In this document: positions 6,870 to 40,941 of the stretch, piece after piece
How positions within the stretch are numbered: the stretch's first letter is position 1
How the letters are laid out: every line of letters begins with the position of its first letter
Virus record (IMG/VR): IMGVR_UViG_3300045974_000283
Coordinates: 64,001-128,000 of that record
DNA length: 64,000 nt
Origin: a virus
Reading direction: 5' to 3' (one strand)
Position numbers and translations under genes: made by a program
The notes under the pieces: model-generated
Told to the model about the DNA's origin: nothing
Seen by the model: the letters and a program-made list of their open reading frames with translations, nothing else
Databases searched by the model: none

Positions 6870-7784
6870 TTACTCCCAGAGCATAGCCATCCCGTAGCGG
6901 GAAAGACCGTTCACCTCGGCGGCGCCGACCCATCCCAATGAGAGATAGGTTCGTGGCACGGAACCGACCAGAGGCAAGGACAGAGTTGAGCCCCGACCGA
7001 TCTCAGAGAGCAGGATGGTACACATGCCGAACACGGGGCTGACGCCAGGAGTCGTCATCCAGTGCATGTATGCCTGACGGTTGCCGTCTTCGTTCGTGGA
7101 GTCGGTGACTGCTCCTGGTACAACGCAGAAGCAAGCTGTCGTTGACAGCGTTGCCATCGTGCTCGGGTAGACTGCCGGGGCATTGGAGAACTTCAAACAT
7201 TGCCATTTGATGGAAGATCCAGAGGGTCCTGCGTATCCGGCGTAGAAGGCAGCCCCGATAGCCGTGGGAGCTCCAGTGGAGTCGCAGGTTCGACAGATTG
7301 CGAAGAACTTTCTTGTGTAGTTGGCGTCGGTGTTGTTCGGCCATGCTTTCCAGAGGAGTCCAAAGAAGCCTTCGTTGACGCAGAGATAGCTTGGATACGA
7401 ATCGCCGTTGACGGAAGGCTGACCACCGGCAGTCACGTTCCGGGTGGCAACCGTAGACGCCACTCCAGTGATCGTGCTTCCAGAGTACCCTGTTCCGACG
7501 GTGAGCCGTAGCTCAGGAGAACCTACGTCGTCACCGAGGCCGTACTCGAACTTGATGAAGATTGGAGCTGTCGCTTGCAAAGAATCGTTGAACCTCCAAA
7601 TCTGGAAGCCCGCGAAAGTATTGTAAGCGGCAGGATAAGAGACCGTCGTGAAGTCGATCTCGCCAAAAACGGTCTCCTTCACCAGACCCGCTTCCGCGAG
7701 ATAGGTAGCAAGGTCCGAGAAGACCGTGCGGAAATTGCTGTTGTTGCTGACGAACGCGGAAGACGTCCAGGTTCTGGTTGTCAT
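6870..7784 (-). CDS. Tail/fibre-associated structural protein, 304 aa
   Basis: Beta-rich ORF in the fibre operon with ATGA overlap. Motif GFQIWRFND.LQ.TAPIFIKFEYG. Confidence 0.65.
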   Translation of the reverse strand: MTTRTWTSSAFVSNNSNFRTVFSDLATYLAEAGLVKETVFGEIDFTTVSYPAAYNTFAGFQIWRFNDSLQATAPIFIKFEYGLGDDVGSPELRLTVGTGYSGSTITGVASTVATRNVTAGGQPSVNGDSYPSYLCVNEGFFGLLWKAWPNNTDANYTRKFFAICRTCDSTGAPTAIGAAFYAGYAGPSGSSIKWQCLKFSNAPAVYPSTMATLSTTACFCVVPGAVTDSTNEDGNRQAYMHWMTTPGVSPVFGMCTILLSEIGRGSTLSLPLVGSVPRTYLSLGWVGAAEVNGLSRYGMAMLWE

Positions 7785-8251
7785 GATTCAATCTCCAGTA
7801 AGAGAACTATTTGACGAAAATCGCTGCAAGAGACAATCTCGCCGATGAAAATATCCGAGTCTGCAAAGGACTTGGTCCAGCCTGACAGAACCAAGTCTTG
7901 GCTCTTGTAGTCGGAGACTATCGTGGGCGGAGTGGAACCGCAGATGCTGACTGGACTGGCGGAGCCGTAATCATTGTGAGAAACCTTCTTCACGTTGATT
8001 ACGCAACTTCCTGTTCCCTCCATTCCGTAGACCGCCGCACGAACGAGAGTTCCTGCCTTGGCGACAGGTCGTATCACGCGGTCAGCACCGACAGGGTCCA
8101 CGGCGAGTCCCTGATTGGACCAGGCCATGAGAATTGAATGGTATTTTGGACCAGCGGGTTCGGCCCCGAGGAGGGCCAGAACTGCCAGCCTCTGCGCTGT
8201 AGACAGCGGGATGCCCGCACCGGAGCGCATCCCTAGATTCAGCACTGACAT
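7781..8251 (-). CDS. Fibre/adaptor protein, 156 aa, N-terminus paralogous to 6016..6615
   Basis: MSVLNLGMRSGAGIPLSTAQRLAVLALLG versus MSLLELGMRSGAGTPMSTAQKLAVINLLG. Confidence 0.7.
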   Translation of the reverse strand: MSVLNLGMRSGAGIPLSTAQRLAVLALLGAEPAGPKYHSILMAWSNQGLAVDPVGADRVIRPVAKAGTLVRAAVYGMEGTGSCVINVKKVSHNDYGSASPVSICGSTPPTIVSDYKSQDLVLSGWTKSFADSDIFIGEIVSCSDFRQIVLLLEIES

Positions 8252-8260
8252 GTGAGGTCC

Positions 8261-10348
8261 TTAGGAAATCCAGTTGAGATTGAGAGCAGCGGCTCCGACG
8301 TGAAGCAAGTGCATCCAGATCCATTGGTTCTGCGTACCAAAGTCAGACGTCGCGCTATGAACACGGATGACATCGGTGGCCCCGTTCGGCCTGCGCCGCG
8401 TCCAGGTCACAATGTTTCCCTTCTTCGTGGCGCGCACGAGGTCGCCCTTAGCGGCCACCACAGAGGTCGCCGTGAAGGTTCCGTTCCGCGCGATATAGTA
8501 GTAGAGGCCTGAAGAGGCCACGATTCCGTCCTGGACATAAGCCGGGTTGGAGTTCCAGTTCGGAGACTCACCGCCCTCGACAGGATAGAGTCCGCAGTAG
8601 ACCAGAGTCGAACCGTCTATCTCACTGCCCACCGTGAACTCGAACAGGGCGTCAACTCCCTGAGAGAACGCGAGGCTGAGCTTACCGCCACAGAAAGAAA
8701 CATCCGTGGCAACGTAGCTGAAGCCGTCGTAGTCGTTCCCCGTCTCGGTGACGTTCTGGGGAATAGTGGGGAAGTTGCCACGCGATAGGTAAGGGCGAAT
8801 TTCCCCAGCCTTCTTGGTTTTGCCCAAGGGATAGTCGCCGATGTTCTTGTGGTAGAGTGCGCGAATCTGGTCAGGCGTCAGCACCACGTTGAAGATGTCC
8901 ATCGGGCCGACGTCTATCTGAGAGACGACTTCATTCGTGAAGTCGCCCGCGAGGCCAAGGATGGCGTTCGCATTCAGGGACACGTTGATGGCGCTGGAGT
9001 TGATGGCGCTGACCTGGAGCTTGTTGTCCACATACAGGGTCACGCGGCCGGAAGCCTTCTCGCGGGTTGCGACACCGAAGTGCCACCGACCGTCGTTGTA
9101 GGAGTTCGTCGTGCGAAGGGTCTCAGTGTTGGCACCGAAAGCGAACTTCCCGTTGTCGCATAGGGCGACACCGAAGTCAGGGGCGGCTCCGGCAGAGTCG
9201 CCTCCGTACAGCGGGAACCCGGCGTAGAACTCGGCGCCACCTCCCGTCTGGAGACTGCGGAACCAGATGCACAGGCTCATGTCGTCCTGCACAGGGCGCT
9301 GGATGGAGAAGCATCCTGAGCTGATGCCCATGCTGAAGTAAGGGCCGAGGTCCGTCGGAATCTTGAAGTAGGGAGTGCTGTTCGGGATGGCGTCGTAGGT
9401 CGAGCCGCCGGAACCTTCGTTGATCAGGTTGCTACTGACAATGGTATTCGTGTTCGAGAAGTGCCAAGGGTTGAAAGACACGATGCGCGAGGACACTGGG
9501 ATTGCGGTCTCGCTGATGCGCCCGGTTGGCGGCGAGAAGTTGGTCGTGCCGTAGGGACTGCCGAGTGAGTAGCGAAACTCATCCCATCCGGTGCCGGGGT
9601 CGCCGCTGCCGTTGCCGTTGAGGAACCAAGCGTCCTTCGTCACGGCGATTGTGTGCGTGTAGCTCGGGTCGTCACGGGTCGTCAGGTTGGTCGTGTTCAC
9701 CGGGTAGACGGTGCCGTTCACAGACAGGTAGAGCTTACCCGCCAGCATGTACAGAGCGAAGTGAACCAGTTGATTGACGGGAACGATGTTGCCCGAGTTC
9801 CACAGGCCATAGGAGTCACCGCCGTCCGGATAGTAGACGTCGATGCTGTTCCCGTTTTGCTTCAGTCCGTACTCGCCACGACTGTGCGTTCCACCACCGA
9901 AGGTGGGGATGCCGTTGGTCATCACCGAAAGTAGAACGCGATCGGTGTAGACCGAGTGAGCGAACTTGGTGATCTCCAGGCACCACTCTGCGCCCATAGC
10001 GGCGACTTCGAAGTAAGGGAACTTCGATCCGTCATTGTCTGCATAGAACTGCTGATTGGCACCGCCACCCAGAGCGTTCACTGTCGTGTACTGAGGCCCC
10101 GTGTTGGAGCCGATGGCGTTGTAGAGCAGGACGGTCGGTCCGCCCTCCACAGAGTTGTCGCAATTCCCGTCGAAGTGAAGAACGACTTGAGCCTGATACG
10201 TGTCAAGCTCGGCGATGAGGAAGTCGTTGTCCACGAACAGGTAGCCCTCGGCGTTGCCGCCGTCCCCGTCGTAGGAAAGGCGCAGCGATCCAGCCGGAGG
10301 CACCGCCACCGGGGTCACCGCCAGAAGTTGTTGGAGGAAGCTGCTCAT
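8261..10348 (-). CDS. Multi-LamG (ConA-like lectin) receptor-binding protein, about 695 aa
   Basis: Start at MSSFLQQLLA (ATGA overlap with 10345..11211). VVLHFDG...HFAL...LYLSV.G...WDEFRY and WHFGVATR...VTLYVDN...MDIFNVVLTPDQIRALY are LamG-like motifs. Confidence 0.75.
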   Translation of the reverse strand: MSSFLQQLLAVTPVAVPPAGSLRLSYDGDGGNAEGYLFVDNDFLIAELDTYQAQVVLHFDGNCDNSVEGGPTVLLYNAIGSNTGPQYTTVNALGGGANQQFYADNDGSKFPYFEVAAMGAEWCLEITKFAHSVYTDRVLLSVMTNGIPTFGGGTHSRGEYGLKQNGNSIDVYYPDGGDSYGLWNSGNIVPVNQLVHFALYMLAGKLYLSVNGTVYPVNTTNLTTRDDPSYTHTIAVTKDAWFLNGNGSGDPGTGWDEFRYSLGSPYGTTNFSPPTGRISETAIPVSSRIVSFNPWHFSNTNTIVSSNLINEGSGGSTYDAIPNSTPYFKIPTDLGPYFSMGISSGCFSIQRPVQDDMSLCIWFRSLQTGGGAEFYAGFPLYGGDSAGAAPDFGVALCDNGKFAFGANTETLRTTNSYNDGRWHFGVATREKASGRVTLYVDNKLQVSAINSSAINVSLNANAILGLAGDFTNEVVSQIDVGPMDIFNVVLTPDQIRALYHKNIGDYPLGKTKKAGEIRPYLSRGNFPTIPQNVTETGNDYDGFSYVATDVSFCGGKLSLAFSQGVDALFEFTVGSEIDGSTLVYCGLYPVEGGESPNWNSNPAYVQDGIVASSGLYYYIARNGTFTATSVVAAKGDLVRATKKGNIVTWTRRRPNGATDVIRVHSATSDFGTQNQWIWMHLLHVGAAALNLNWIS

Positions 10349-35907: not shown

Positions 35908-36768
35908 GTGGCAACAAAGATTGAACTCGTTCGTGTGAATGGCGTCTGCTACCCGATGTCCTCTGCTGACATCGAAAGCCTCTCCGCCGCTGGATACCCT
36001 ATGTGCCGCATCTCGCAGACGGCGCTCGACGCCATCCGCGCGATGTTCAAGAAGTCCGATCTGGAGTTCGAGGTCTACCCTTGGGAAGACACCCACCCGG
36101 AACTCATCCGGCACTTCATATCCATGTGCGATCAGGACTTTGATCTCGCTGGCAAGGTCACCCTCGACCCAGCCTACGATCCGGTCAAGCCTTCGTTCCG
36201 CGTTTTTGTGCAGGAACAGGAACACGTTGAACCCGACACCCCCTCGATTGAAGAAATCGCCCGCACCCGCCTCGCTCGCAAAACCCAGAAGCACCCGATC
36301 CAGGTTCAAGACCTGAGCAAGGCCATCGCAGCGGCCAAGGCCGAGCAGGAACAACTCGTCGCGTCCAACGCTTTCGAGACCCGTCTCCTGCCTCGCCTTC
36401 AGCGGTACGTCGGTCAATACTGCTTCCGCCTCGTTCACACGAAAGCGTCCAAGCCACACGACGGTGGAACTCTCCATCAAGTCGATTTCCGGTACGAACC
36501 GGACATGCCCAATCACACCTTCTACTCATCCGCACCCGACATCAAGTCCGAAGCCTACCTACAGCTCGGCATGTACTATCGCGTTCGCTTCGAAATGAAG
36601 ACGATGGAAATCGACGGCAAGTTCAAGCGCGTCTTGGGCATCGCCGCTCAAGAGCACATCAATGGTGCATGGCAAGGCCCCATGCTCCCGCGCATGTTCC
36701 CCGTTCGCGACGTTGACCACGCCAGCGCCCGCGAACTCGTTTCCTTCATCATGGGGAATCTGCTGTGA
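35908..36768 (+). CDS. Hypothetical protein, about 286 aa
   Basis: GTG start behind AGGA. GTGA overlap with gyrB. Confidence 0.7.
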   Translation: MATKIELVRVNGVCYPMSSADIESLSAAGYPMCRISQTALDAIRAMFKKSDLEFEVYPWEDTHPELIRHFISMCDQDFDLAGKVTLDPAYDPVKPSFRVFVQEQEHVEPDTPSIEEIARTRLARKTQKHPIQVQDLSKAIAAAKAEQEQLVASNAFETRLLPRLQRYVGQYCFRLVHTKASKPHDGGTLHQVDFRYEPDMPNHTFYSSAPDIKSEAYLQLGMYYRVRFEMKTMEIDGKFKRVLGIAAQEHINGAWQGPMLPRMFPVRDVDHASARELVSFIMGNLL

Positions 36769-39290
36769 CCGCCATCAAGACGTCCGCAAAGGCGTATTCC
36801 GCGGAAGACGTTCAGCATCTGGCTGGCGCCGAGGTCATCCGTTCCAAGCCTGCCATGTATCTCGGCGAGCCCGGCCCGGCCTGCGCGTTCACAGTCGTGC
36901 GCGAAGTTGTGGACAACGTGGTTGACGAGGCCCTCAACGGTCACGCTTCTGCCTGCCTGCTCTACGTCGATACCACCGACAAGACGAAGGCTGTCTACAC
37001 GGTCGCCGACAACGGTCGCGGTATCCCGATCGGCATGTCCACGGTCACCGACGCGGTGTCCGGCACGACCCAGAAGCTGCCTGCGCTTCAGGTCGTCACG
37101 GGTCTGATCCACGGCGGTGCCAAAATGGGTCAAGCCGGAACCGCCTACGAGGTCAGTCGTGGCTCACACGGCGTCGGCATCAAGGGCACGAACTTCACCG
37201 CCAAGACGTTCGAGGTCTGGTCGTGCTTCAACGGGAAGTGGCAGTACATCGCCTATCGCAACGGCAAGCTCGTCGTTCCGGTCAAGGCGACGAATGCGCC
37301 TACCCTGCCGCACACCGCCAAGCCCGCAACCCGTGGCACCGTCGTGAAGTTCTCTCCGGACCCGGCCATCATCGGTGCGGATCGGTTCCCCCTCGTGATG
37401 TTCGAAGAGTGGGCGTCTGTCGCTGCCTACTTCACGGACGGCCTGACTGTGACCATCACCGGCAAGGGTATCGAGCGCAAAGACTGGAACTTTCCTGAAG
37501 GCCCGGCCACGTTCGTGTCGACCCGTGTCGGCGAACTGCAATCTGAGCTGATCGACAGCAAGATGCTGACGGTGCGTAACGCGCTCTGCGATGTCGTGCT
37601 CGGTTTCTCGAACTACGACGGCTGCGACTTTGCTGCCTTCACGAACGGCCTGCGCAACCCGGACAAGGGCGTCCACTTCGACGGGGTCTTTGGCTCGCTG
37701 ATGAAAGCCATCACGCCGTTCATCACTGCCCGCCAAAAGTTCGGACTGGCGGAGCTGAAGGAAGGCGTCGTGGGTCTGGTCAACGTCAAGCTGTCTGCCC
37801 CCAAGTTCTCCAGCCAGACCAAGGACAAGCTCGTCGATGAACGCGCTGGCAAGCCGCTGCGCGACCTGCTTGAGGTTGAGTTCGCTGCGTTCTTTGCTGC
37901 GAACAAGGCGATGGCCTCGCGCATCACAGCCAGATGCTCGGAGTTGGCAAGCGCCCGCGCAAAGTTCTCGATGACCAAGAAGGCGCTCATGGATGTCAAG
38001 AAGGCCATCAACGGCGCCCTGCCGTTCAAGGCCATGACCGCACCGCACGCCCGACCGGAACAGCGCGAGTTGTATCTGCTCGAGGGGGACTCGGCATCGG
38101 GAATTTGTCGCGAGGCCCGCAATCCCACGTTCCAGGAGGTCCTTCCTCTTCGTGGCAAGCTGAAGAATGCCTCTCGCACCGAAGAGGCCAAGAACCTCGT
38201 GTCGAGTTCCACTGTGCTCGATATCCTCACCATGCTCGGCTTCGATCCATCCAAGCCTGACTACATGGACCATCTGCGAGTCAAGAACAAACTTGTCATC
38301 CTCACTGACCCTGACCCAGACGGCCCGCTCAACGGCTCGGCCACGTTGCAGGTTCTCGTTCACTCGGACAAGAGCTGGCACACAGTCACGATGCGCGAGC
38401 TCCACGAGTCTCTGCTCTGGCAGGAACTTTCCTACTCGGTGGTGGCCTGGGATCACATCCACCAGAAGTTCGTTCTGGCCCCGGTCTCTGGCACGAATGC
38501 CGTTGACCTGAAGCCGACCGACGATGTCTGCCAAATCGACTTTGGAACCGCTCGGTACTGGACCACACCGAAGCATCGCTGGGTCGCAGCCCGCACTGAG
38601 ATTGCCCCCGTTCGCAACGTGAACTACGAAGGCCAGACTCCACACGAAGGTCAGCTTCAGTTCGTCACTTCCGACAACCTGAAGACTGGTCTCGGTGTTC
38701 TCGCCGCTCGTGAAGTTGGCCGGTACGGTCGCAAGGTGGAGCTGTTCCAACCCAATCACTTGCAGACCCTGTTGATTCCCAACTCCTACGGCACCGAACC
38801 AGACCTCGTGCGCAAGTTCAAGGTGCAGAAGGTTGGCGAACGCAACGACCTGAAGCGGCTCTACTGCCTACAGGTGCCGAAGTATCACAACTTCGTTCTG
38901 TCTTCTGGCGTCGTCTCCGGGAATAGTCACATCAGCACGTTGATCCTCAGCCTCATCTACAAGTTGATGCCTGAGATGTTCGCCAAGAAGATGGTCTATC
39001 AGTGCATCGCGCCGGAGTTCTACGCGATGGTCGGCAAGAAGGCGTTCTACGGCATGAAGGTCGGCGATCTGCGCACCAATCTGGCCGAGGCCGGAGCATC
39101 GCCCAAAACCGCCCTTCACCACATCAAGGGATACGGCGAGCTTCCGGCCAAGCAAGTCGAGGAGGTCGCGTTCAACCCGGCAACGCGCCGCATCATGCGC
39201 ATCGAGATCGTCAACACGGATTCCGGCGTTGAGTTCTTGAGGTTAATGGGCAAGGAAGTCTCGGCCCGCAAACTCCTCCTGGGAATCTGA
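36765..39290 (+). CDS. gyrB: Type IIA topoisomerase ATPase/TOPRIM subunit (GyrB/ParE-like) with intein
   Basis: GHKL motifs EVVDN..DE, DNGRGIP, G.HGVG. TOPRIM EGDSA, PLRGK, TDPDPDG/SHI, the last split by a 200-aa insertion. Confidence 0.95.
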   Translation: MTAIKTSAKAYSAEDVQHLAGAEVIRSKPAMYLGEPGPACAFTVVREVVDNVVDEALNGHASACLLYVDTTDKTKAVYTVADNGRGIPIGMSTVTDAVSGTTQKLPALQVVTGLIHGGAKMGQAGTAYEVSRGSHGVGIKGTNFTAKTFEVWSCFNGKWQYIAYRNGKLVVPVKATNAPTLPHTAKPATRGTVVKFSPDPAIIGADRFPLVMFEEWASVAAYFTDGLTVTITGKGIERKDWNFPEGPATFVSTRVGELQSELIDSKMLTVRNALCDVVLGFSNYDGCDFAAFTNGLRNPDKGVHFDGVFGSLMKAITPFITARQKFGLAELKEGVVGLVNVKLSAPKFSSQTKDKLVDERAGKPLRDLLEVEFAAFFAANKAMASRITARCSELASARAKFSMTKKALMDVKKAINGALPFKAMTAPHARPEQRELYLLEGDSASGICREARNPTFQEVLPLRGKLKNASRTEEAKNLVSSSTVLDILTMLGFDPSKPDYMDHLRVKNKLVILTDPDPDGPLNGSATLQVLVHSDKSWHTVTMRELHESLLWQELSYSVVAWDHIHQKFVLAPVSGTNAVDLKPTDDVCQIDFGTARYWTTPKHRWVAARTEIAPVRNVNYEGQTPHEGQLQFVTSDNLKTGLGVLAAREVGRYGRKVELFQPNHLQTLLIPNSYGTEPDLVRKFKVQKVGERNDLKRLYCLQVPKYHNFVLSSGVVSGNSHISTLILSLIYKLMPEMFAKKMVYQCIAPEFYAMVGKKAFYGMKVGDLRTNLAEAGASPKTALHHIKGYGELPAKQVEEVAFNPATRRIMRIEIVNTDSGVEFLRLMGKEVSARKLLLGI
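38325..38924 (+). mobile_element. Mini-intein (Hint domain only, 200 aa), class 3-like, Pro1
   Basis: Interrupts DG|SH. Block A PLNGSATL, block B TTPKHRW, block F LYCLQVPKYHNF, block G GVVSGN followed by Ser+1. No LAGLIDADG motifs. Confidence 0.9.
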
Positions 39291-39294
39291 CATC

Positions 39295-40941
39295 ATGGCT
39301 ACTCGTCCCGCTCCTCGTCCGGTCCGCCGGACGCAATCAACACCGACATCAGGCCGTCCGGCCGTCAAGCCCACCGAGCGCGTCGCTCGCCGCCGAACTG
39401 CCATCTCGGCTCACGAGGCTGAGATGAGCGAACGGCTGGAAGGCGTCCAGGACTTGCTGGAGTTTGCCAACGACGCCATCCTGCGCTACGGCACCAAGAC
39501 GAACGAAGACCGGGCCATCCCGGCCTATCAGGACGGATGCAAGCCTGTCCAGCGCCGTGCCATCTACGCGGCCCGCCGGGTCGTCAACACAAGGCAAGGC
39601 AAGACGGCTCGCTTGGTCGGTGAGGTCATCGGTACTCTGCACCCGCACGGCGACGCTTCTATCTCTGACGCCATCTCGACGATGGTCACTTCCGAGGTTC
39701 CGTGCTTCGAGGGGTTCGGGAATTGGGGCTCGCTCCTCGACCCGCCCGCTGCCATCCGGTACACTGAGCTGAAGCTCAGTGTCTACGGCCATCAGTTCCT
39801 TCACCCGAACTATCTGCCGGTGATACCGATGGTCCCGAACTACGACGACCAGGACACTGAGCCTGCCTTCCTGCCTGCGCTTCTGCCGAACATCCTGCTC
39901 CAACATGCTTGGGGCATCGGGACCGGTGTGAACACGATTATCCCCGCGTTCACGCCGACGTCGCTTCTCCCGGTCATCATCGACCGCATGAAAGGCAAGG
40001 AGTTCACAGCGGCGGAGCTGGTCAAGCGACTGGAGTTCATGTGGTCATGGGGCGGCAAGGCATCACGCGACAAAGCCAATCTGCAACGCATGGCGGCGCT
40101 GTTCACCGAGACGAACAGTGAGACCATCCACTACGTTCCGCATATCGAAGTGGACGAGGCCAAGCGAACCATCACCATGTTCGGCGCCCCACCGAACCTG
40201 AAGCTGGACACCTTCGTGAAGAAGGTGCAACTGCTGAAGCCAGTGGCTTCGGTGGGCGCCGACAAGAAGGGCGTCGCCTACACCATTCGGGTCAAGCGAG
40301 GCACCTCAGATCAGCTCTGGGCTTTGCTGGTCGCGCGAGTACGCGAACTCGCCAAGTCGAGTGTGTCCTACGCCATCTACGTGGCGAAGCGCACCCCTGT
40401 CGAGGAGACCAAGTTCAAGACGACCTTCCACCGGTTCTCGGTCATCGAACTCATCAACGCCTGGATCGAGTTCCGCCTCGTGCTCGAAGTGCGCTCGCTC
40501 ATGTACCGCATGGAACGTGTGAAGGCGCAAGTGACCAGGCTCAAGCTGATGATGCTCGCAGCTGACAACCTGACCAAGGTTTTTGCTGCGCTCAAGTCGA
40601 AGGACCCTGACACTCATCTGGTCGCCAGCATGAAGATCACGCTCGAAGAGGCAGGCATCATCTTGGGGATGCGTGTCCGTCAGCTGTCAACCCTCGACCG
40701 CAACAAGTGCGCCAAGGCCAAAGACGAACTCGTCGAAGCCTACGCTCAGTTGAAGGCCGCGACCAAGAACCCGGCCCCCGGTGTGATTGCCTATCTGCAA
40801 GCCGCCCTCCAGGCGTTCGAGCAGTCGCAGTACATCATCACGAACTGCGATCAGTGGCGTCTCAAGTCCAGCGCAGCAATGAACAAGGTTCTGTCGTTCG
40901 CCGACGGCACCGACCAAACCGAAGGAGAGCAAGATGACTGA
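39295..40941 (+). CDS. gyrA: Type IIA topoisomerase breakage-reunion subunit (GyrA/ParC-like), no C-terminal pinwheel
   Basis: RAIP..DGCKPVQRR, K.ARLVGEVIG.LHPHGD.S, GN.G, AAIRYTE catalytic Tyr. Only 548 aa. Confidence 0.93.
   Translation: MATRPAPRPVRRTQSTPTSGRPAVKPTERVARRRTAISAHEAEMSERLEGVQDLLEFANDAILRYGTKTNEDRAIPAYQDGCKPVQRRAIYAARRVVNTRQGKTARLVGEVIGTLHPHGDASISDAISTMVTSEVPCFEGFGNWGSLLDPPAAIRYTELKLSVYGHQFLHPNYLPVIPMVPNYDDQDTEPAFLPALLPNILLQHAWGIGTGVNTIIPAFTPTSLLPVIIDRMKGKEFTAAELVKRLEFMWSWGGKASRDKANLQRMAALFTETNSETIHYVPHIEVDEAKRTITMFGAPPNLKLDTFVKKVQLLKPVASVGADKKGVAYTIRVKRGTSDQLWALLVARVRELAKSSVSYAIYVAKRTPVEETKFKTTFHRFSVIELINAWIEFRLVLEVRSLMYRMERVKAQVTRLKLMMLAADNLTKVFAALKSKDPDTHLVASMKITLEEAGIILGMRVRQLSTLDRNKCAKAKDELVEAYAQLKAATKNPAPGVIAYLQAALQAFEQSQYIITNCDQWRLKSSAAMNKVLSFADGTDQTEGEQDD

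Follow-up and report, generated by a model that had tools for sequence, protein, structure and literature searches.

A putative class 3-type Pro1 mini-intein in the TOPRIM metal-binding motif of a phage type IIA topoisomerase

The insert, its boundaries and its fold

We analyzed a 64,000-nucleotide stretch of viral DNA (the window), bases 64001 to 128000 of the 177.8-kb IMG/VR virus record IMGVR_UViG_3300045974_000283, whose completeness is estimated at 74%. Our subject is a 200-codon insert in a gyrB-like gene, which encodes the ATPase/TOPRIM subunit of a type IIA topoisomerase; read from its sequence, the insert is almost certainly a functional mini-intein of class 3 type that begins with Pro (Pro1). 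The closest cultured relatives of the gene are found in jumbo phages, namely phiRSL1, BcepSauron/Saruman and jumbo phages of Rhizobium, Xanthomonas and Pseudomonas. The features of the locus are listed below; intein residues are numbered from 1 to 200, residues of the flanking exteins are numbered in the precursor, and a slash marks an intein boundary.

36765-39290, plus strand: GyrB-like precursor open reading frame (ORF), type IIA topoisomerase ATPase/TOPRIM subunit, 841 amino acids (aa) including the intein (ORF translation, Pfam, NCBIfam)
36765-38324, plus strand: N-extein, 520 aa, ending with the TOPRIM metal-binding motif DPDPDG (sequence; 98.5% identity to the relative P0003)
38325-38924, plus strand: mini-intein, a HINT splicing domain without endonuclease, 200 aa/600 nucleotides, Pro1 to Asn200, codons 521 to 720 (sequence, NCBIfam, profile, model)
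38325-38327, plus strand: Pro1 (block A1), codon CCG, non-nucleophilic, opening block A (PLNGSATL); in alignments, matches Cys1 in L014 (CLDGDTRI) and the Pro1 shared by 64 Cys-F4 family members
38565-38582, plus strand: block B, T-P-K-H-R-W, with Thr81 (B7), His84 (B10, 38574-38576) and Trp86 (B12, 38580-38582) (sequence, family alignment)
38862-38888, plus strand: block F, Y-C-L-Q-V-P-K-Y-H, with Cys181 (F4, 38865-38867) and His188 (38886-38888) (sequence, alignments)
38916-38927, plus strand: block G, S-G-N/S, with Ser198 (G5), Gly199 (G6), Asn200 (G7, 38922-38924) and Ser+1 (sequence)
38925-39290, plus strand: C-extein, 121 aa plus stop, beginning SHISTLIL (sequence; 95.9% identity to P0003)
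39295-40941, plus strand: partner subunit with a GyrA/ParC-like breakage-reunion domain, 548 aa (Pfam DNA_topoisoIV, PF00521, E=5.6e-61, residues 73-492)

Pfam matched DNA_gyraseB, Toprim, HATPase_c and DNA_gyraseB_C in the 841-aa ORF, which is laid out as GHKL ATPase, transducer, TOPRIM and C-terminal GyrB domains, and on direct reading the EGDSA, QTK loop and GHKL motifs of the N-extein are all intact. The NCBIfam GyrB and ParE models match the ORF as two pieces with a break at residue 520-521, where the precursor reads ...LVILTDPDPDG/PLNGSATL...(200 aa)...VVSGN/SHISTLIL... Excision of the insert regenerates DPDPDG-SHI, and the intein-free relatives P0159 and P0162 (637 aa, 48-50% identical to the window's N-extein) read DPDPDG/SHINSL. 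The restored motif and the intein-free DPDPDG/SHIN relatives therefore fix the insert as exactly Pro521 to Asn720 of the precursor, with Ser721 (+1) filling the variable x of DxDxDGxHI. An earlier note, made from the sequence of the window, had reported a Mg-binding motif split by 200 codons at this position, which is confirmed, and a direct count agrees with every residue and coordinate it gave for Pro1, His (38574), Trp (38580), Cys (38865), Ser at G5 and Gly at G6.

The intein blocks A, B, F and G read PLNGSATL, TTPKHRW, LYCLQVPKYHNF and VVSGN/S, and the terminal Asn and the +1 nucleophile that splicing requires, here Ser, are both present. The penultimate residue is Gly rather than His. 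A hidden Markov model (HMM) of the family described below places block B of the window intein on SASHGW of MP-Be, the class 3 prototype from Mycobacterium phage Bethlehem, and Cys181 falls on F4, which is Asp in the Ssp DnaE and Pho RadA inteins and Cys in MP-Be. A second Cys lies at 38538-38540 (DDVCQIDF); it is kept and doubled in P0003 (DEVCCVEF) and is not a feature of the wider family.

Profiles and a structure model indicate that the insert is a genuine HINT-fold intein. The insert exceeds the 15.6-bit cut-off of NCBIfam TIGR01443 (intein_Cterm), with 25 bits, or 30.3 bits when the genome was scanned, and a profile of the insert and nine homologues matches solved inteins in the PDB, with Pho RadA first (E=1e-6), followed by PolII, NrdJ-1, DnaB and DnaE. 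The AlphaFold model built on the same alignment has a mean predicted local distance difference test (pLDDT) score of 68.5, with 75-90 in the core, and superposes on the Pho RadA intein from residue 1 to residue 200 (Z 17.4, root mean square deviation 2.3 A, 157 residues aligned). In the PDB structure search, 81 chains had a Z of at least 8, and all 50 listed entries are inteins or related HINT domains. The Hint-domain match that the earlier note's reading called for is thus in hand, and its view that the insert lacks a homing endonuclease is borne out, since within the 200 aa Pfam finds no domain but the splicing one.

Megablast of the whole gene against phage records gave no match, and tblastn with the intein alone against phages returned nothing at E<=0.01, though phiRSL1 and BcepSauron carry homologues, which were reached only by a whole-protein search. 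A single-intein query for related loci likewise found none where an alignment query succeeded, and phmmer of the single intein against the PDB produced spurious top matches with weak ones to the C-terminal part of the DnaE intein, so that a profile was required.

An intein family at one topoisomerase site

Homologous inserts occupy the same GyrB site in nine further IMG/VR jumbo-phage contigs, besides phiRSL1 and BcepSauron. The family set comprises 81 inteins at this site, taken from the best 150 of 836 profile matches, in a search that covered 1.84 billion representatives, and from the nearest GyrB homologues. Identity between the window intein and nine other members, eight with Pro1 and one with Cys1, is 20-32%. 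Across the set, 72 of the 74 alignable inteins have Cys at F4, the exceptions being P0033 and P0043 with Asp; B10 is His in 70 of 70, and G7 is Asn in every alignable member. Position B12 is Trp (51), Phe (18) or Leu (1), G5 is Ser (62) or Thr (8), and G6 is Ser, Gly, Lys or Ala, never His. Residue 1 and +1 of the Cys-F4 members are Pro/Cys in 59, Pro/Ser in 5 (the window subclade), Cys/Ser in 6 and Cys/Cys in 2. In these raw counts, which include shared ancestry, the two positions are nearly complementary, Pro1 occurring with Cys+1 in 59/64 and Cys1 with Ser+1 in 6/8; the window subclade, with Pro1 and Ser+1, is the exception.

Comparison of occupied and empty alleles provides evidence of selection at the junction. 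The site was scorable in 61 of the nearest GyrB relatives, of which 25 have an intein there and 36 are empty; intein-free alleles, which the earlier note had proposed to look for in related phages, are therefore at hand, P0159 and P0162 among them. The +1 residue is Cys or Ser in all 25 intein alleles, and Ser in 7 of the 36 empty ones (Fisher p=4e-11), where the residue after DG may be any of eleven kinds (S, A, H, Y, F, W, K, Q, L, D or E). That a nucleophile is fixed at +1 in the intein-bearing alleles only argues for selection for splicing.

In a maximum-likelihood tree, the Cys-F4 inteins at the GyrB site form one group (SH-aLRT 97), inside which Pro1 and Cys1 members are interleaved. A single Pro1 clade is rejected by the approximately unbiased (AU) test (p=0.0096), and Pro1/Cys1 pairs are up to 63% identical, as are P0020 and P0090. 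On these sequences residue 1 appears to have switched between Pro and Cys more than once, and this interleaving over a near-invariant Cys F4 points to residue 1 being dispensable and Cys F4 not.

The window copy itself has the marks of a long-settled element. P0003, the closest relative, shares 98.5% identity with the N-extein, 95.9% with the C-extein and 77.7% with the intein, whose substitutions fall outside blocks A, B, F and G. Third-position G+C content (GC3) is 0.745 in the intein and 0.79-0.84 in the host gene, and this nearness in base composition indicates long residence. The long members of the family measure 422-453 aa, and an HNH_3 endonuclease lies inside the intein in three of the five scanned with Pfam, at the position of a low-confidence loop in our model (about intein residues 130-156). 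The sequences suggest that the GyrB-site family is mobile now or was formerly, with the window copy as a mini form; we read the window intein as descended from a mobile family with longer, HNH-bearing members and as long resident in its gene.

The same site has also received inteins of another kind. P0033 (1295-1446) and P0043 (910-1050), other phage topoisomerases, carry class 1 inteins at DxDxDG/SHI, with Cys1, Asp F4 and a penultimate His (IHN and VHN), and these group with class 1 outgroups in the tree. By sequence they would represent a separate lineage, such that two intein lineages invaded one site. Some phage GyrB genes hold two or three inteins (P0013, P0016, P0031, P0158, P0188 and P0193; 1115-1444 aa), with additional insertion sites in the GHKL domain (...SRG/C...N/THG...) and at the EGDSA motif (...ELYI/C...THN/CEGDSA), some of them with HNH_3. 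In phiRSL1, a gene for an HNH-AP2 endonuclease (ORF332, L001:2381-2923) lies immediately 5' of the intein-bearing gyrB, and a small ORF, ORF334 (L001:5580-5933), separates gyrB from gyrA. The HNH-AP2 protein may be a free-standing homing endonuclease that serves the endonuclease-less intein. No counterpart of it was found in the window, where the eight ORFs flanking gyrB, checked for an adjacent homing endonuclease, gave no Pfam matches, and a genome-wide intein scan found no second intein anywhere in the 177.8-kb record.

Splicing route and its alternatives

Three features of the window intein are those of class 3: residue 1 is not Cys, Ser or Thr, F4 is Cys, and a Trp stands at B12, two residues after His84. 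As residue 1 is Pro, an N-S acyl shift there is impossible, which sets aside a class 1 reading, and since the window subclade has no thiol at either residue 1 (Pro) or +1 (Ser), Cys F4 is left as the sole plausible first nucleophile. We infer that the mini-intein is active and splices by a class 3-type route through Cys F4, the best reading of the sequence, to which we assign a probability of about 0.75. Class 3 chemistry has been described for inteins of the Pro1/Cys-F4 type (PMC2807308, PMC5222942, PMC4031507), and a Pro1 intein with Cys F4 does splice (PMC2807308).

Under this reading, translation would yield a precursor of 841 aa whose DPDPDG and SHI elements are separated by 200 residues. 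Cys181, activated by His84 (B10) together with Ser198 (G5) and packed by Trp86 (B12), would attack the Gly520-Pro1 bond and take over the N-extein as a thioester, forming the block F branched intermediate. The N-extein would then pass onto the Ser+1 hydroxyl, yielding a second branched intermediate, that of block G, whereupon cyclization of Asn200 would free the intein. We propose that this last step is aided by the block F residue His188, because the penultimate residue is Gly. A final O-N shift would form the native peptide bond, so that self-excision joins Gly520 to Ser721 in an active subunit of 641 aa.

The strict Trp-Cys-Thr (WCT) signature of class 3 is departed from at G5, where Ser198 keeps the hydroxyl. 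This is one of several observations that count against our reading. Pfam Intein_splicing scores below its gathering threshold for the window copy (25.7 against 35.8), though it passes in relatives; the mean pLDDT of the model is just 68.5; and solved class 3 inteins match the model less well (Z 13.9-14.4) than class 1 inteins do (Z 16-17). The 70-sequence family HMM gives MP-Be 7.3 bits, as opposed to 57-87 bits per domain for class 1 phage inteins, and hhalign of the family against the MP-Be prototype returned no match. Furthermore, Cys F4 is present in Cys1 relatives with canonical endings (T/V-H-N/C) at the topoisomerase EGDSA site, and for this reason Cys F4 does not by itself identify class 3. 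The case for splicing across the GyrB-site family is, finally, one made from sequence and a model.

Several of these departures have precedents. Trp-Cys-Ser (WCS) and Phe-Cys-Ser triplets occur among 1702 catalogued class 3 inteins, WCS three times (PMC7891396), and Ser at G5 thus departs from the strict class 3 signature and not from the broadened one. The AceL NrdHF intein, with a Met-Cys-Thr (MCT) triplet and no His at G6 or F13, performs fast class 3 splicing, and its T(G5)A (T144A) mutant still splices (PMC7891396). Gly is a natural penultimate residue in phage inteins, one of which spliced more slowly when that Gly was changed to His (PMC5050341). The earlier note had remarked on Ser G5 and the missing penultimate His; both are present, but being family-wide and with precedents they are not signs of decay (PMC7891396, PMC5050341). 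Its assignment to class 3 is strengthened as to mechanism by the near-invariant Cys F4, the toggling residue 1 and Ser+1; membership in the WCT clade, whose prototype scores 7 bits, is possible, and we use class 3 here for the mechanism.

An alternative is that the class 3 route was acquired separately from the actinobacterial and mycobacteriophage WCT inteins, starting from Cys1, class 1-type phage inteins that had Cys F4. The family HMM scores given above (57-87 bits per domain for class 1 relatives, 7.3 for MP-Be) point this way, as do the nesting of Cys1 members among Pro1 members at one site and the occurrence of inteins with both Cys1 and Cys F4 at other topoisomerase and primase sites. 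The profile comparison, however, covered one canonical class 3 sequence (MP-Be), and deep intein phylogeny is poorly resolved. There is also a possible canonical link in the same search neighborhood, the P-loop intein of a gp41/DnaB-like helicase, P0096 (about 203-604), with Pro1, Cys F4, T-H-N and Thr+1. We regard separate acquisition as possible, though doubtful.

The P0096 intein has the triplet His-Cys-Thr. Its Cys1 counterpart, P0064 (about 206-446), has Trp B12, Cys F4 and S-H-N/T, and the pair displays the same residue 1 toggle as the GyrB site. The two may possibly form a bridge to canonical class 3.

Taken further, the GyrB-site inteins could be a second, independent origin of class 3 or an extant series of transitional forms linking class 1 with class 3, a proposal that we advance tentatively and do not favor. 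As a transition series, Cys F4 would have been fixed first, in Cys1 inteins, and residue 1 would then have been swapped repeatedly between Cys and Pro at one site. According to published views, one event gave rise to class 3 (PMC4031507), and a conversion of class 1 to class 3 is too improbable to have occurred (PMC7664689); a second origin or transition series, if true, would contradict both.

A quite improbable alternative is that the intein has decayed into a permanent, non-splicing HINT insertion, with a topoisomerase that either tolerates a 200-aa loop domain or is inactive. The non-nucleophilic residue 1, the missing penultimate His, the lack of an endonuclease and the subthreshold Pfam score would fit such a history, as would an intein that evolves about ten times faster than its exteins, and HINT termini lie close together, making a loop insertion sterically conceivable. 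Yet members as distant as 20-32% identity retain His B10, Cys F4, Asn G7 and a nucleophile at +1, the changes relative to P0003 spare all four blocks, and +1 varies freely only where the intein is absent. The enzyme is otherwise well conserved, and the insert breaks its metal-binding element, DxDxDG-xHI.

Very improbable, in turn, is a class 2-like route, in which +1 attacks the N-terminal junction directly, as in the KlbA Ala1 inteins, with Cys F4 in a supporting role. Cys+1, the class 2 nucleophile, is found in 59/64 Pro1 Cys-F4 members, and G6 is not His, as in KlbA with its Ser G6 (PMC4031507). Class 2 inteins, however, have Ala1, Asp F4 and Cys+1, and the window has Pro1, Cys F4 and Ser+1, Ser, common to the whole subclade, being a weak nucleophile for attacking an amide directly. 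Class 2 needs the Asp at F4, which is Cys in 72/74 here, and every class 2 intein known is a KlbA orthologue that starts with Ala (PMC4031507). A class 1 reading was rejected outright, residue 1 being Pro and not Cys, Ser or Thr.

Known relatives and implications

MP-Be (PMC2807308) resembles the window intein in Pro1 (PLALNTEV and PLNGSATL), in His B10-x-Trp B12 (SHGW and KHRW), in Cys F4, in the terminal Asn and in a hydroxyl residue at +1 (Thr and Ser). It differs in having Thr G5 and His G6 (LTHN/T) in place of Ser and Gly (VSGN/S), and in its 341 aa with an endonuclease domain and its terminase host. We located this so-called DnaB intein in the terminase gene of AY500153, at 7680-8702 (L017:421-1443); this large terminase gene is annotated as a hypothetical protein in that record, and Bethlehem gp62, annotated as a DnaB-like helicase, has no intein and an intact P-loop (L016:12500-13321). 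The earlier note contrasted a topoisomerase host with the helicases it associated with the class. The host is indeed a topoisomerase, but it is less special than was supposed, as terminase, RecB, IcmO and NrdHF are also known to host class 3 inteins (PMC5050341, PMC5222942, PMC7891396).

The AceL NrdHF split intein (6ZGQ) resembles the window intein in departing from WCT, in lacking a G6 His and in its HINT fold (Z 14.4), and has been shown to use the class 3 route efficiently (PMC7891396). It differs in being naturally split, with Met B12, Thr G5 and a ribonucleotide reductase-related extein, and it lacks the block F His that the window intein keeps as His188. The Bvi IcmO intein of Burkholderia vietnamiensis is, like that of the window, a class 3 mini-intein without an N-terminal nucleophile, and its splicing passes through branched intermediates at block F and block G (PMC5222942, PMC2807308). 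Its Cys+1 is that of most GyrB-family members, in contrast to the Ser+1 of the window copy, and it differs further in its full WCT triplet and its IcmO extein.

The GyrB proteins of phiRSL1 (BAG41779) and BcepSauron (QBQ74549) contain homologous 179-aa Pro1 inteins at the identical DPDPDG/xHI site and share His B10, Cys F4, Ser G5, the absence of a G6 His and the terminal Asn with the window intein, from which they differ in Phe B12 and Cys+1 and to which they are about 23-25% identical. The mycobacteriophage primase intein of BillKnuckles gp54 (L018; PMC5050341) likewise sits in a TOPRIM active-site motif and has Cys F4 (VYCVSVP), Gly G6 and Asn; with Thr G5 and the ending VTGN/C, it resembles the GyrB-site family in blocks F and G. 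It differs in its Cys1, in its 312 aa with an inserted domain and in its site, the primase TOPRIM Glu motif (AEGE/../CD) and not the topoisomerase DxD.

The partner subunit gene begins 4 nucleotides downstream of the GyrB-like ORF, and its GyrA/ParC-like product needs the spliced B subunit. Pfam matched no C-terminal DNA-wrapping domain in this 548-aa partner, and from the sequence this is probably a phage topoisomerase II that relaxes or decatenates DNA, not a true supercoiling gyrase. Two-subunit phage-type topoisomerase II is known from jumbo phages (PMC7824862), and the gene pair in the window is of the same type. An antisense open frame of 531 codons (37164-38759, minus strand) spans part of gyrB and the 5' part of the intein; it most likely arises from the high GC3 of the sense frame.

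We found no description of an intein in a phage topoisomerase II, or in phiRSL1 or BcepSauron, in the searchable literature, whose coverage is itself partial, and the GyrB accessions of the latter two phages do not appear in the portion of the text available to us of the paper cataloguing 1702 class 3 inteins (PMC7891396). Their GenBank records describe a type IIA topoisomerase without an intein feature. The GyrB-site family is large, and its chemistry is not in itself a new mechanism. In dozens of phage "GyrB" genes, among them those of phiRSL1 and BcepSauron, which are cultured, an intein has gone unrecorded, and the protein lengths and domain maps of such phage GyrB proteins are therefore wrong.

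For the phage, the intein would be an obligatory maturation step of a replication enzyme, as an unspliced precursor would have a broken topoisomerase metal-binding loop. The earlier note's proposal that splicing is obligatory for topoisomerase activity is thus sound, given the position of the insert, while its further suggestion of a conditional switch on phage replication is speculation for which nothing in the sequence speaks. The family supplies compact Pro1 inteins (155-200 aa) with Ser G5 and no penultimate His, and its natural Cys1/Pro1 pairs, up to 63% identical at one site, form a test bed for how a block F Cys replaces residue 1. The more lasting value lies at the family level, where the block F Cys is near-invariant and residue 1 alternates between Cys and Pro, and the family bears on whether class 3 chemistry arose once or several times.

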